Assembly: GCA_046757595.1 (NCBI GenBank)
Contig: JBHHYQ010000001.1
Coordinates: 1-25,643, forward strand
DNA from: Candidatus Omnitrophota bacterium
Lineage (GTDB): Bacteria > Omnitrophota > Gorgyraeia > Ghiorseimicrobiales > Ghiorseimicrobiaceae
Direction of reading: 5' to 3'
Length of the DNA: 25,643 nucleotides
Positions 20,510-23,866 of the stretch are shown piece after piece (positions within the stretch are counted from its first letter, which is position 1; every line of letters starts with the position of its first letter). The notes under the pieces were generated by a model, which was not told the origin of the DNA, did not search any database, and saw only the letters and a list, made by a program, of their open reading frames with translations. The position numbers were made by a program, and so were the translations under genes.

Positions 20510-21202
20510 ATGAAGAACAAATCCCGGATAAAATTATTAACCGTTGTCTTTCTCGTTGGCCTGATTATCGTCGTAATACGCCTGCCTAAGATAGACTTCT
20601 CTCATATATCCCCCCAGGGATTCAAACAATGGGTTGAGTCTTTAGGGGCCTGGGGGCCTTTGGCCTACATAGCCATATATGTCCTCCGCCCCCTAATCCT
20701 CTTCCCCGCGGGAATACTCTCGGCCGCGGCCGGGATTATCTGGGGGCCGTTAGTGGGATTTTTATACCTGCAGATTGGGGCGAATATCTCGGCATGGGGA
20801 GAATTTTTTGCCGCCCGCTATCTTTTCCGCAAGAGAGCAGAAAAATACCTCCGCGGCAAGATAGAGGCCCTGGACAAAAAGATAGAACGCAACGGCTTCC
20901 TCGCCGTGCTGTTAATCCGGGTAATCCCCAATGTCGCCTACGACATCCAGAACTTAAGCCTGGGGCTTACCAAAGTGAAATTCCGCGATTATTTTCTGGG
21001 AACGCTAATCGGGATTATCCCCGGCTCGTTTGCCTTCGTCTTTTTCGGGGCCAGCCTGATAAGCATCTTGTTCAACCCCAAAAACATCTGGATGATCGTC
21101 CTGGCGATAGCGATATTCGCCGGGGTCTATTTCCTGCAAAAAACCCTGAGAAAAACAAAAGTTAAGTTGACATCTGCGGTTCAACCGCAGATGTCAACTT
21201 AA
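20510..21202 (+). CDS. TVP38/TMEM64 (DedA/VTT) family membrane protein
   Basis: LGAWGPLAYIAIY, FPAGILSAAAG, LIRVIPNVAYD, DYFLGTLIGIIPG. Confidence 0.93.
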   Translation: MKNKSRIKLLTVVFLVGLIIVVIRLPKIDFSHISPQGFKQWVESLGAWGPLAYIAIYVLRPLILFPAGILSAAAGIIWGPLVGFLYLQIGANISAWGEFFAARYLFRKRAEKYLRGKIEALDKKIERNGFLAVLLIRVIPNVAYDIQNLSLGLTKVKFRDYFLGTLIGIIPGSFAFVFFGASLISILFNPKNIWMIVLAIAIFAGVYFLQKTLRKTKVKLTSAVQPQMST

Positions 21203-21212
21203 CTCACAAGAT

Positions 21213-23228
21213 ATGGACGCATTCGCTACGGTTTTGAAAAAACACGGGATTGGACCGCTGCTGCGGGATAGGCTCGACACCCTGCAGGTAAATATGGGCA
21301 ACCTCTGCAACCAGGCCTGCCGCCATTGCCATATTGCCGCCTCGCCGCAAGGAAAAAAGATAATGTCCCGGGCGGTCGTAGATAAAATAGTGAAATTCCT
21401 GGCCAAAAACCGGCTGGACACATTAGACATCACCGGAGGGGCCCCGGAACTAAATCCCAACTTCGAACACCTAATCAAGGCATCCCGTCCCTATGTCCGG
21501 GAGGTTATCGTCCGCTGTAACCTAACCGCGCTATCTCAGCCCGGAAAAAGCCGCCTCGAACGGCTGTTTCGGGACCGCAATGTCCACTTAATTTGCTCCC
21601 TGCCCTGCTACAGCCAGGAGAACACGGACGGACAACGTGGCCGCGGTGTATTCCAAAAAAGCATCGCCGCCCTGCGCCGGCTTAACGGCTTGGGCTATGC
21701 CCGGGGCAACGGCCTGCGCCTGGACCTGGTCTATAACCCCGCCTCGGCAATGCTTCCGCCGAAAGAAGAACTCCTGAGACAAGAATACCGGGAGGCCTTG
21801 ACGGAAAAACAAGGTATCCGCTTCGACCGACTGATAACGATAACCAACTCTCCGATAAATAGGTTCAAAGGCTACCTAAAAAAACGGGGAGAATACGACG
21901 ATTATATCACCCTGCTGAAAGACAACTTCAACCCCGATGTCTTAGGCAAACTTATGTGCCGCAATTTATTGAGTGTGGACTACAAAGGGCGCCTCTACGA
22001 CTGCGACTTCAACCAGGCCGCAGGGATCCCCTTAAAAGGCAAACAAGGAAGGCATCTCGATATCACGCGGTTAAACCCCCGGGACCTGACAGGCAAAAAG
22101 ATAGCAACCGCGCAACACTGCCTTTCCTGCGCCGCGGGATGCGGCTCGACCTGCCAGGGGGCTATAGACAACGGAGAGGGCAAACAAAAGCAGGCGGCAA
22201 CCCGGCAATACTACGGGAAGACATTGAAGAACAAGCGCGACCTAAAGACCGGGGCCTGCTGCCCCACAGAGGCAATGCCCAAAGAGCACAAAGCCATCCT
22301 CTCTCTCATAGAACCGGAGATACGAGATAAATTCTACGGCTGCGGCTCGCCCATCCCCCCCCTGGTCCGGGGCTGCTCGATATTGGATTTAGGCTGCGGC
22401 GCGGGACGCGATGCCTACCTGTTATCTTATCTCGCGGGAAAACAGGGGCGGGTAATCGGCGTGGATATGACACAAGAACAGATAAACATCGCCCAAAAGT
22501 ACAAAGACCGCCAGATGCGCCGCTTCGGGTTTTCATCGGCCAATATAGAGTTCAGGCGCGGATATATAGAAAACTTAAATACCCTGGGCATTGCCGATAA
22601 CTCCCTGGACATAGTCGTCTCCAATTGCGTAATAAATCTCTCCGTCGATAAACAGGCGGTATTCCGTGAGATCCTGCGCGCGCTCAAGCCGGGCGGGGAG
22701 TTGTATTTTTCCGATATCTTCTCCGGGCAACGGCTGCCGCAACGACTAAAAAATGACCCCATACTATACGGAGAGTGCCTGGCCGGGGCGCTTTATACCC
22801 AAGATTTCCGACGGATACTCAGGGACTGCGGCTGCCTGGACTATCGGATAGTCAACCGCCGCAAGGTCACCCTAAACGATCCACGCATAGAAGAAAAAGT
22901 GGGGGGATATGACTTTTATTCTATGACCGTGCGCGCCTTCAAGCTGGACACACTGGAAGACGCCTGTGAAGACTACGGCCAGGCGGCCGTATACTTGGGG
23001 ACGATACCCAAGATACCGCACCGGTTTATCCTCGACGAGCATCATATCTTTATCGCGGGAAAGCCGATGCTTGTCTGCGGTAACACAGCAGAGATGCTTA
23101 CCAGGACGCGCTACGCAAGGCATTTTCGGGTCGAGGGAGACCGTAAGGTCCATTACGGCCCCTTCCCCTGCGGCGGTAAAAACGAAAACGACGCTACCAC
23201 AGGGGAAATCAACGTCGGGTGCTGCTAA
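21213..23228 (+). CDS. Fusion of arsenosugar-biosynthesis radical SAM ArsS (N-term) and arsenite SAM-methyltransferase ArsM (C-term)
   Basis: LQVNMGNLCNQACRHCH, DITGGAPELNP, LMCRNLLSVDY, YDCDFNQ, HCLSCAAGCGSTCQG; then YYG...TGACC, FYGCGSP, LDLGCGAGRD, VSNCVINL, GECLAGAL, EDACEDYGQ. No internal stop. Confidence 0.9.
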   Translation: MDAFATVLKKHGIGPLLRDRLDTLQVNMGNLCNQACRHCHIAASPQGKKIMSRAVVDKIVKFLAKNRLDTLDITGGAPELNPNFEHLIKASRPYVREVIVRCNLTALSQPGKSRLERLFRDRNVHLICSLPCYSQENTDGQRGRGVFQKSIAALRRLNGLGYARGNGLRLDLVYNPASAMLPPKEELLRQEYREALTEKQGIRFDRLITITNSPINRFKGYLKKRGEYDDYITLLKDNFNPDVLGKLMCRNLLSVDYKGRLYDCDFNQAAGIPLKGKQGRHLDITRLNPRDLTGKKIATAQHCLSCAAGCGSTCQGAIDNGEGKQKQAATRQYYGKTLKNKRDLKTGACCPTEAMPKEHKAILSLIEPEIRDKFYGCGSPIPPLVRGCSILDLGCGAGRDAYLLSYLAGKQGRVIGVDMTQEQINIAQKYKDRQMRRFGFSSANIEFRRGYIENLNTLGIADNSLDIVVSNCVINLSVDKQAVFREILRALKPGGELYFSDIFSGQRLPQRLKNDPILYGECLAGALYTQDFRRILRDCGCLDYRIVNRRKVTLNDPRIEEKVGGYDFYSMTVRAFKLDTLEDACEDYGQAAVYLGTIPKIPHRFILDEHHIFIAGKPMLVCGNTAEMLTRTRYARHFRVEGDRKVHYGPFPCGGKNENDATTGEINVGCC

Positions 23229-23866
23229 TGCCCCAGGATACGTTGATTATCTTTATGAAATACCCCCGGCCGGGCCGGGTCAAGACCCGGCTGGCCGCGG
23301 ATATCGGCCGGGAGAATGCCGCGCATCTTTACCGGTTGTTTGCCGAGGCGATTTTGCAGACGACGCAGTCAGGAAATTTTCGGCGCATAGTATATTACGC
23401 GCCGCGGGGCAAAAAACAGGATTTCCAAAACTGGCTGGGGAAAGAGACAAAACTTCGCCCCCAACAAGGCCAGACATTGGGGCAACGGCTTTCCGACGGC
23501 TTTAAGTCCCTGTTTTGGCAAGGGGCAAAGCGGGTAGTGGCCATAGGGACGGACAGCCCGTTGTTATCGCCGGAAACGATAAACCGCGCCTTTCGGCTAT
23601 TGCGCAGGCACCAATGTGTTCTCGGCCCCTGCATAGACGGAGGGTATTATCTTTTGGGGCTGTCGGGATTTTATCCCGCCATATTCCAAAAGATATCCTG
23701 GGGTACGAATAAGGTGTTGCGGCAGACGCTAAAAAGAATCGAAGAAGCAAAACTGAGCCATAAGCTGCTAAATCCGGGATTTGATATCGATGACATCGGG
23801 GGCCTGTTGCTGTTGGAAAAAATGCTAATGCAGACACAAAGGGCGAGCGCTCGCTTCGCTCGTTAA
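23228..23866 (+). CDS. TIGR04282/DUF2064 family arsenosugar-associated glycosyltransferase-like protein
   Basis: [53 protein letters not shown] stop/start overlap with the fusion gene. Confidence 0.92.

Follow-up and report, generated by a model that had tools for sequence, protein, structure and literature searches.

An ArsS–ArsM fusion gene of a vent Omnitrophota bacterium belongs to a large family of probable DDMAA synthases

The DNA analysed here (the window) is a stretch of 25,643 nucleotides from a contig of a Candidatus Omnitrophota bacterium. It carries a compact unit in which a dedA-like gene is followed by an arsS–arsM fusion gene and by a gene of the TIGR04282 family, with a REP-like palindrome lying at the first of the two gene junctions. 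The coordinates of these features, and of the domains within the fusion protein, are collected in Table 1.

Table 1. Features of the arsS–arsM locus, in window coordinates
Feature	Position	Strand	Description
dedA-like gene	20510..21202	+	230-aa DedA/TVP38/VTT-domain membrane protein; first in the unit
REP-like perfect palindrome	21161..21205	.	20–21 bp stem; between the dedA body and the arsS–arsM start
arsS–arsM fusion gene (P0001)	21213..23228	+	one ORF, 671 aa, single genome copy
ArsS domain, residues 1–318	21213..22166	+	radical SAM core and Cys-rich DUF3641 region
Inter-domain linker, residues ~318–332	22164..22208	+	neither sequence nor length conserved
AS3MT-type ArsM domain, residues 327–671	22191..23228	+	SAM motif, four Cys positions, disordered tail ending in Cys670-Cys671
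TIGR04282/DUF2064 'arsenosugar biosynthesis glycosyltransferase' gene	23228..23866	+	profile match

An ORF check of the window found no stop within the 671 codons of the fusion gene, and a genome search returned this one copy. The linker (IDNGEGKQKQAATRQYYG, residues 318–335) contains no ATG, GTG or TTG codon in frame. The earliest in-frame starts past it are a TTG at codon 338 and an ATG at codon 355, the latter being located downstream of the first Cys pair of ArsM (ACC), and a separate ArsM produced from an internal start was ruled out on these grounds. We observed that Logan per-run contigs from three hydrothermal-vent metagenome runs span the junction of the two halves without an indel. 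One of these contigs (X1 record 2) covers positions 21177–22225 with 0 differences, and another (X3 record 23) covers 21627–23261 with 10 substitutions and 0 gaps; the three runs are probably the source samples of the window assembly, and the support that they give is not fully independent. A frameshift artefact is excluded because more than 120 homologues show the same continuous architecture. The first-pass annotation had described one uninterrupted ORF for ArsS and ArsM, and had pointed to a stop or a frameshift at the junction as the thing to look for. The ORF, its motifs and the startless linker all agree with that description, and the contigs of the three runs cross the junction intact. 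The sequence data support arsS–arsM as a genuine fusion gene, whose one polypeptide contains both ArsS and an AS3MT-type ArsM, each of them complete. The protein has no third domain.

In profile searches, residues 17–318 matched TIGR04167, a curated equivalog model with a cut-off of 300 bits, at 400.1 bits over model positions 3–303 of 303. The same half matched PF04055 (44.1 bits) and PF12345 (DUF3641; 161.8 bits, positions 1–134 of 134). The stretch CNQACRHC at residues 32–39 holds the CX3CX2C [4Fe-4S] motif of radical SAM enzymes (C32-x3-C36-x2-C39), and the C-terminal motif of ArsS, HCLSCAAGCGSTCQG, occupies residues 302–316. Cys32, Cys36 and Cys39 show no variation in an alignment of 24 sequences and are kept by at least 90% of 124 aligned fusion proteins, every one of which has cysteines 249, 264, 303, 306 and 314. 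With a score above the curated cut-off along the whole model, the N-terminal half is assigned to ArsS by its profile match. TIGR04167 itself is named a '(seleno)protein' family.

The ArsM half was matched to solved structures of the AS3MT type, namely PDB 5evj (E = 4.9e-102) and PDB 4fr0 (E = 7.1e-94), in alignments that start at residue 309/327 and run to residue 657; its identity to the solved-structure homologues is 38–48%. When the model of this half was compared by Foldseek, the TM score was 0.95 with 5evj (CrArsM; rmsd 2.3 Å), 0.88 with 4fr0 (CmArsM) and 0.88 with human AS3MT (8xt7); the three-domain fold is shared with these structures at TM 0.86–0.95. A SAM motif, DLGCGAG, is present at residue 392. 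The motifs ACC (348–350), YGCG (375–378), SNCV (470–473) and GECL (520–523) place Cys349/350, Cys377, Cys472 and Cys522 in alignment with the SAC, YGCG, SNCV and GECL motifs of CmArsM, and we take these four positions to be the counterparts of CmArsM Cys44, Cys72, Cys174 and Cys224. All four arsenic-binding Cys positions are invariant across the 124 fusions. The half stayed below the cut-offs of the NCBIfam ArsM models NF008823 (178.7 bits versus 263), NF038099 (113.8 versus 400) and NF040538 (154.7 versus 500), which cover other ArsM subtypes; it resembles the AS3MT enzymes of algae and animals more closely.

Next to the fusion, the DedA-like protein matched PF09335 (VTT_dom) at 99.1 bits against a cut-off of 33.9, and did not reach the equivalog cut-off of the DedA-family polyprenyl-phosphate flippase UptA (22.5 versus 250 bits). 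General membership of the VTT-domain family is what these scores establish, and a flippase role would be a family-level assignment. There are two VTT genes in the genome in total. The dedA ORF ends 10 nt before the ATG of the fusion, and its final 14 codons fall within the REP-like hairpin, which in RNA folding gave −35.4 kcal/mol (z = −9.8). The 1.17-Mb draft genome has 28 copies of the palindrome, many of them close to contig ends, and in metagenome contigs it coincides with a depth spike and many loose ends. A RAYT-like gene is found on contig C37 of the same genome. On the other side of the fusion, the TIGR04282 gene scored 198.8 bits (cut-off 134) with its family model and 115.3 bits with PF09837. 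The fusion stop and the next start read TGCTGCTAATG, where the ATG shares one base with the TAA (TAATG); a GTG at 23219 offers an alternative start. A FIST gene at 19241–20431 was rejected as a member of the unit, as it is conserved in no related locus.

The NCBIfam 'arsenosugar biosynthesis' set consists of the TIGR04282 and TIGR04283 transferases alongside ArsS. We found this set to be complete in the genome, since TIGR04282 adjoins the fusion and a TIGR04283 (GT2) gene lies on another contig (G000:C37:6321–6974; 235 bits, cut-off 182). No TIGR04283 gene was found within the window. An orthologue of a flavoprotein disulfide reductase, which is MerA/glutathione-reductase-like and reaches no curated cut-off, is on a further contig (C105), so that the fusion locus, the GT2 gene and the reductase gene are scattered over at least three contigs. 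A search for the arsenite pump Acr3 in this 78%-complete genome found none.

Five genomes of the same class have conserved the fusion cluster, and in every one of them it includes the flavoprotein disulfide reductase. Four of the five have a dedA orthologue (33–61% identity) immediately 5' of the fusion. TIGR04282 is present in one copy in each of these genomes, and both it and TIGR04283 are clustered with the fusion in four, the TIGR04282 gene of the remaining genome (G233) being on a different contig. The conserved gene set around the fusion is made up of the TIGR04283 GT2, TIGR04282, the flavoprotein disulfide reductase and DedA. These data agree with much of the first-pass annotation, which had reported a compact cluster with a DedA/TVP38 gene 10 nt upstream, a TAATG overlap coupling the TIGR04282 gene to the fusion and an ArsM with all four conserved cysteines; DedA moreover proved to be a conserved cluster member in the relatives. 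It had also listed the GT2 partner TIGR04283 as absent, and this is right for the window and wrong for the genome.

The same architecture was found in at least 120 protein clusters (at 90% identity) with 55–61% identity along the whole protein, mostly from Omnitrophota. The window copy, whose best identity is ~60%, is the most divergent family member seen. The fusion occurs in six of the 301 sampled genomes of the phylum, and uninterrupted fusions are also present in MAGs labelled Nitrospirota, Elusimicrobia, Proteobacteria and Arcobacter. From these counts of clusters and genomes, and from the MAGs of several other phyla, Omnitrophota is the main home of the ArsS–ArsM fusion in databases. NCBI and JGI name such proteins 'ArsS', 'radical SAM/Cys-rich protein' or 'arsenite methyltransferase'; P0065 and P0088, for example, are named 'arsenosugar biosynthesis radical SAM protein ArsS' or 'hypothetical protein'. 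Hence the rarity and novelty implied at first reading mostly fail. The fusion is largely common and already annotated, in several phyla, and the window gene is best regarded as a member of a common family and not as a one-off. We found no paper describing an ArsS–ArsM fusion in the literature searched, in which subscription papers were thinly covered, and this is weak evidence.

Reverse-order fusions (ArsM–ArsS) were also found; one of them, P0125, had a single collinear relative, P0274, in a search for its relatives, and this one reverse fusion is therefore rare. In many phyla arsS and arsM are adjacent yet separate genes. Both domain trees group the window copy with the same Omnitrophota fusion proteins, which indicates that the two halves evolved together. 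The starred branches of the trees force at least three to four changes for S>M and at least three for M>S. Fusions thus arose more than once and with either domain first, which is the Rosetta-stone pattern of functionally linked proteins. Loci of Bacteroidota, Planctomycetota and Gammaproteobacteria have arsS and arsM in the same frame with a stop between them. In many cases this stop is TAA or TAG, or others come after it; selenocysteine read-through was therefore rejected for most of these loci, which are adjacent separate genes. In-frame TGA variants occur in the same phylum as the window.

ArsS is reported to adenosylate DMAs(III) to DDMAA (PMC13598754; Cheng et al. 2021, as cited in PMC12159101). 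The curated ArsS score, the homology of the ArsM half (47% identity, TM 0.95) and the conserved cysteines lead us to consider that the window protein is probably a bifunctional synthase converting As(III) to DDMAA, as part of a large fusion family and a conserved gene set. To our knowledge, the arsenosugar pathway is known only as far as DDMAA, and only from separate cyanobacterial ArsM and ArsS enzymes. We infer the following for the chemistry and its order, for the hand-over between the sites and for the part played by the genes next to the fusion. At the C-terminal ArsM domain, arsenite would receive two methyl groups from SAM and become dimethylarsenite. The N-terminal ArsS domain would then take the 5'-deoxyadenosyl group from another SAM, the third, and attach it to the arsenic. 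The product would be 5'-deoxy-5'-dimethylarsinoyl-adenosine (DDMAA), the first intermediate committed to arsenosugars. The fusion, presumably derived from adjacent arsS and arsM genes, would supply both activities in a 1:1 ratio and side by side, and the toxic, oxygen-labile trivalent intermediate could be used on the spot. It would act within the set of TIGR04283 GT2, TIGR04282, flavoprotein disulfide reductase and DedA, in hosts that are uncultured and probably mostly anaerobic bacteria. Against the synthase reading stand the sub-threshold NCBIfam scores of the ArsM half, the failure to find Acr3 in the incomplete genome and a low pTM (0.53) of the whole fusion in AlphaFold2.

The last of these bears on how the two halves cooperate. 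Although both domains were confidently folded, their packing against each other was not predicted with confidence, and the linker had a pLDDT of 50–64. A complex prediction for the ArsS and ArsM halves as a pair gave a score of 0.03 (mark 0.34), which speaks neither for nor against their packing. True channelling, as proposed in the first-pass annotation, would need the domains to be packed with a tunnel, or the C-terminal Cys-Cys arm to carry As(III)/DMAs(III) from ArsM to ArsS. The terminal Cys-Cys of 114 of the 124 fusions, on a tail predicted to be disordered, and the retention of the fused state throughout a large clade are consistent with this. However, CC-containing tails are also present on stand-alone ArsM proteins encoded next to arsS (L043 ends in CCS and L071 in CCP), and the tail is therefore an ArsM trait, not a fusion-specific one. 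The linker is 7–77 aa long (median 22 in 119 fusions) and its sequence is not conserved, the pTM is low and the linker is modelled with low confidence, and fusions exist in both domain orders. These features fit proximity and fixed stoichiometry better than a structured tunnel or a fixed channel, and we regard channelling as unlikely. Bolder still, and quite unlikely, is a self-contained DDMAA synthase whose CC tail would ferry trivalent arsenic from one SAM-dependent site to the other and which, with DedA, a dedicated reductase and the two transferases, would make an arsenosugar or arsenolipid associated with the membrane, in vent Omnitrophota that are anaerobic and do not photosynthesise. 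If true, arsenosugar and arsenolipid synthesis would extend well past cyanobacteria and algae, with candidates named for the late steps.

Bifunctional synthesis of DDMAA was also weighed against another product or metalloid altogether, such as adenosylated monomethylarsenite or arsenite, or Sb, Se or Te chemistry, with no arsenosugar formed. In keeping with this are the '(seleno)protein' name of TIGR04167 and the TGA variants in the phylum, the flavoprotein of the cluster with its scores below curated cut-offs, the methyltransferase half with its own, and the lack of any report of an arsenosugar from Omnitrophota in the literature searched, the coverage of which was incomplete. But the four As(III)-binding cysteines and the three-domain AS3MT fold are retained and the ArsS score exceeds the equivalog cut-off, and we consider a different product very unlikely. 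The probability that the fusion itself is an artefact, with two adjacent genes joined by a missed stop or an indel in a metagenome contig, is negligible. The genome is indeed a fragmented MAG of 209 contigs, and many relatives have arsS and arsM adjacent but separate. We rejected this explanation since run contigs cross the junction without an indel, at least 120 independent homologues (including those of the five same-class genomes) keep the same continuous frame, and the linker lacks an internal start.

Compared with the pathway of Synechocystis sp. PCC 6803, the window shares the enzyme families ArsM and ArsS with their conserved catalytic cysteines, its genome has the accessory families TIGR04282 and TIGR04283, and the expected chemistry, As(III) to DMAs(III) to DDMAA, is alike. 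The differences are that a single chain, in which ArsS comes first, takes the place of two enzymes, that the host is a small-genome Omnitrophota vent bacterium, and that the cluster adds DedA and, in the relatives, the flavoprotein disulfide reductase. CrArsM, CmArsM and human AS3MT have the three-domain fold, the four cysteines and the SAM motif in common with the window ArsM, but are stand-alone proteins without a radical SAM domain. The fusions in MAGs of Omnitrophota, Elusimicrobia and Nitrospirota have the same architecture, invariant residues and DedA and TIGR04282 neighbours as the window, which differs from them in having its GT2 and reductase genes on other contigs and a REP-like element inserted at the dedA/arsS–arsM junction.

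The window locus itself adds little, being one more family member, rather divergent and rearranged. The recurrence of the fusion in both orders and in several phyla is independent genomic evidence that ArsM and ArsS act as a pair, and the fusion may serve as a convenient single-protein system for studying the hand-over of dimethylarsenite. Its conserved companions, namely TIGR04282, TIGR04283, DedA and the flavoprotein disulfide reductase, offer candidates for the later steps that the arsenosugar pathway still lacks. The family suggests that uncultured anaerobes such as Omnitrophota may feed complex organoarsenic cycling in vents and groundwater.

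The arsS-arsM gene occupies the middle of three tightly packed co-directional genes, lying 10 nt downstream of a dedA-like gene, while its stop codon overlaps the start of a TIGR04282/DUF2064 gene (TGCTGCTAATG). The flanking genes, encoding a FIST-domain sensor and AccA, are unrelated to this unit, and neither had conserved adjacency to the fusion at the other loci compared. A GC-rich hairpin with an 8-bp stem (GTTTCGGG-ACTGCGC-CCCGAAAC) lies in the 78 nt that separate the FIST gene from dedA. We detected no sigma-70-like promoter across 20300-24100.

Coordinates of the arsS-arsM unit and of related features in the window and at other loci (G, genomes of the phylum, G000 being the window's own; C, contigs; L, loci)
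Feature	Location	Strand	Remarks
FIST-domain sensor gene	19241-20431		flanks the unit
GC-rich hairpin	20466-20497		
dedA-like gene	20510-21202	+	230-aa VTT/DedA membrane protein; PF09335, 99.1 bits
Perfect palindrome	21161-21205		45 nt
arsS-arsM fusion	21213-23228	+	single ORF, 671 codons
TIGR04282/DUF2064 protein gene	3' of fusion		TIGR04282, 198.8 bits (cut-off 134)
accA	23938-24900		flanks the unit
PNP/MTAP-family gene	G000:C2:16029-16751		single in genome
Cluster reductase	L099:2336-3760		
Cluster reductase	L100:2523-3950		
Cluster reductase	L101:2603-4033		
Cluster reductase	L102:5135-6565	-	
Cluster reductase	L103:77-1507	-	
Cluster reductase, window's own genome	G000:C105:77-1492		separate contig; 60% identical
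Dual-specificity, PTP-like phosphatase domain protein	L099:1845-2339		
Dual-specificity, PTP-like phosphatase domain protein	L100:6865-7842		
Unfused ArsS region	L037:4586-9581		Candidatus Auribacterota MAG
TGA-bearing stand-alone ArsS	G148:C67:4742-5701		
TGA-bearing stand-alone ArsS	G209:C21:25881-26864		
TGA-bearing stand-alone ArsS	G098:C55:10464-11432		
TGA-bearing stand-alone ArsS	G164:C95:748-1662		
TGA-bearing stand-alone ArsS	G090:C3:11204-11740		

The ArsS-ArsM fusion reported in the first-pass annotation was confirmed. All the motifs that it quoted are in place, and no ATG, GTG or TTG lies in frame within the linker, the earliest in-frame starts being a TTG at codon 338 and an ATG at codon 355. 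Logan per-run contigs from three hydrothermal-vent metagenome runs span the junction (22160-22215), with no insertions or deletions reported in 20400-24000; these runs are not independent of the assembly, because they are probably its source samples. The gene is present in one copy in the genome, and the same continuous frame recurs in more than 120 homologues, a comparison of sequences that is the stronger argument for a real fusion. Many single-base differences, and no indels, were also seen in the vent runs within 20498-23539, which indicates that several strains of the organism co-exist in these samples.

The assignments of both domains are solid. Residues 17-318 match TIGR04167, the curated ArsS equivalog, from end to end (400 bits, cut-off 300), as well as the Pfam families Radical_SAM and DUF3641. 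Residues 327-657 align over their full length with solved arsenite methyltransferases, namely Chlamydomonas ArsM (5evj, E 4.9e-102), Cyanidioschyzon ArsM (4fr0/4kw7, E about 7e-94) and human AS3MT (8xt7, E 1e-63). Against the NCBIfam ArsM models, which represent other subtypes, this half stays under the cut-offs; the algal and animal AS3MT type describes it best. In an AlphaFold2 model built with 124 fusion sequences as input (mean pLDDT 86), the C-terminal half superposes on 5evj with a TM-score of 0.95 (rmsd 2.3 A, 47% identity). No ArsS structure was found in the PDB; the N-terminal half comes closest in fold to radical SAM enzymes of the SPASM type, SkfB and BlsE among them (TM about 0.5). 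Cys349/350, Cys377, Cys472 and Cys522, which match the arsenic-binding motifs of CmArsM in the alignment, are invariant among the 124 fusion proteins, as are the DUF3641 cysteines 249, 264, 303, 306 and 314. The ArsS cluster cysteines 32, 36 and 39 are invariant in a 24-sequence alignment and at least 90% conserved among the 124.

The rarity implied by the first-pass annotation was not supported, the fusion being common in public data. A search of 5.8 billion proteins, clustered at 90% identity, gave at least 120 fusion clusters of 645-736 aa, 53-61% identical to the query across 94-100% of its length. Almost all have the complete Pfam complement (radical SAM, DUF3641, methyltransferase); in P0110 the PF04055 match alone is missing. 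They are entered in the source databases under names such as 'arsenosugar biosynthesis radical SAM (seleno)protein ArsS [Candidatus Omnitrophota bacterium]', 'radical SAM/Cys-rich protein' and 'arsenite methyltransferase'; the database name in use is half-correct. Two of these proteins, P0065 and P0088, are letter-for-letter identical to products of G145 and G233, genomes of the same class as the window's, and this identity assigns the window to Omnitrophota. In an even sample of the phylum, 6 of 301 genomes, the window's own included, carry the full-length fusion, and about 20 further ones have a separate arsS gene, often near arsM. Among GTDB species representatives, uninterrupted ArsS-to-ArsM fusions were also observed in MAGs bearing the labels Nitrospirota, Thermodesulfovibrionales or Dissulfurispiraceae (L022, L023, L025, L026), Elusimicrobia (L027), Proteobacteria (L019), 'delta proteobacterium' (L029) and Arcobacter (L087), and in an unclassified MAG (L024); P0280, labelled Chlamydiota, is of fusion length. 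Reverse fusions, with the methyltransferase N-terminal, are represented at 50% identity by P0125, P0127, P0136, P0139 and P0155, the P0125 type having few close relatives. Adjacent but separate arsS and arsM genes, in either order, occur in cultured Bacteroidota and Proteobacteria (Fibrella, Polaribacter, Zhongshania, Methylotetracoccus), and likewise in a Cyanobium MAG. We found no paper on the fusion or on Omnitrophota arsenosugar chemistry in the searchable literature.

Some stand-alone ArsS homologues of the phylum contain one or two in-frame TGA codons, in keeping with the selenoprotein variants to which the name '(seleno)protein ArsS' of the family points. No in-frame TGA was seen in the fused forms examined.

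In maximum-likelihood trees of both domains, the window's protein clusters with the same Omnitrophota fusion proteins (closest ArsM half, that of G135, 63% identity), and therefore the fused gene evolved as a unit. Most ArsS-to-ArsM fusions fall within one ArsS clade (SH-aLRT 87) composed of an Omnitrophota-type and a Nitrospirota/Arcobacter group, with unfused members interspersed; L029 and P0128 form a separate, strongly supported fused pair distant from it. Well-supported branches force at least 3-4 state changes for this order and at least 3 for the reverse, counts that are rough because the trees were quick and some 'stand-alone' entries may be fragments. Repeated fusion, with both orders existing, is secure. 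In the ArsS tree, reverse fusions appear at no fewer than three separate positions. The ArsS domain closest to the window's (57% identity) is an unfused one, at L037. Its neighbours are a DedA of 61% identity and a TIGR04282 gene; a TIGR04283 gene lies 3 kb upstream, and there is no ArsM within 8 kb.

ArsS is established in the literature searched as a radical SAM enzyme that breaks the adenosyl C-S bond of SAM and adenosylates dimethylarsenite, DMAs(III), to 5'-deoxy-5'-dimethylarsinoyl-adenosine (DDMAA) in a redox-neutral reaction (PMC13598754; Cheng et al. 2021 via PMC12159101; bioRxiv 10.1101/2024.02.01.577332). ArsM provides the DMAs(III), starting from As(III). Because ArsS makes DDMAA from DMAs(III) supplied in this way, the fused protein most likely converts As(III) and three SAM to DDMAA. 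The product of the PNP/MTAP-family gene is a candidate for removing adenine from DDMAA. As to how the two halves cooperate, channelling had been proposed. We argue for flexible tethering rather than a fixed tunnel, because the linker is unconserved and varies from 7 to 77 aa across fusions, both domain orders exist, and AlphaFold2 folds each half well with a pTM of only 0.53 and a linker pLDDT of 50-64. Of the 124 fusion proteins, 114 have a disordered C-terminal tail that ends in Cys-Cys, and stand-alone ArsMs likewise bear Cys-Cys at or beside the C-terminus.

Of 91 ArsS loci from many phyla, about 25 have a DedA homologue within the flanking sequence retrieved, and the window's genome has only two VTT genes; we therefore consider the DedA-ArsS association real. 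DedA may flip a lipid-linked product or transport an oxyanion. Its identification as a UptA orthologue was rejected (22.5 bits against 250).

In five fusion genomes of the same class, a conserved cluster comprises GT2 (TIGR04283), TIGR04282, a flavoprotein disulfide reductase, DedA and ArsS-ArsM; it is incomplete in some, the G073 cluster lacking DedA and G233 having its TIGR04282 gene on another contig. The reductase (about 475 aa, class I, with Pyr_redox_2 and dimerisation domains) is similar to MerA, lipoamide dehydrogenase and glutathione reductase, and its scores stay below all curated family cut-offs. The catalytic cycle of ArsM forms a cysteine disulfide, and the reductase could recycle it. 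A phosphatase domain protein lies inside or beside the cluster in two of the related genomes and is absent from the window.

Of the five members the window retains only DedA, the fusion and TIGR04282. The reported absence of GT2 thus stands for the window and fails for the genome, where the gene (235 bits) lies on contig C37 beside a gene for a RAYT-like (REP-associated tyrosine) transposase. As both GT2 and the reductase are present elsewhere in the genome, the locus reflects a rearranged cluster and not a different pathway. A perfect palindrome (AAGTTAAGTTGACATCTGCGG-TTCAA-CCGCAGATGTCAACTTAACT) encodes the final 14 codons of dedA together with the stop, and its end lies 8 nt ahead of the arsS-arsM ATG. 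The palindrome's core is present in 28 copies in the draft genome (1.17 Mb), frequently at the ends of contigs; besides the window, C8, C23, C28, C37, C52 and other contigs have it. Its depth spikes about 50-fold in the contigs of the vent metagenomes, where it has many different flanks. It looks like an active REP family that may have dispersed the arsenosugar-type cluster and broken up the assembly. In the literature searched, the fusion class is still an undescribed variant of the established ArsM/ArsS pathway, and the window locus is one more member of the family, somewhat rearranged.
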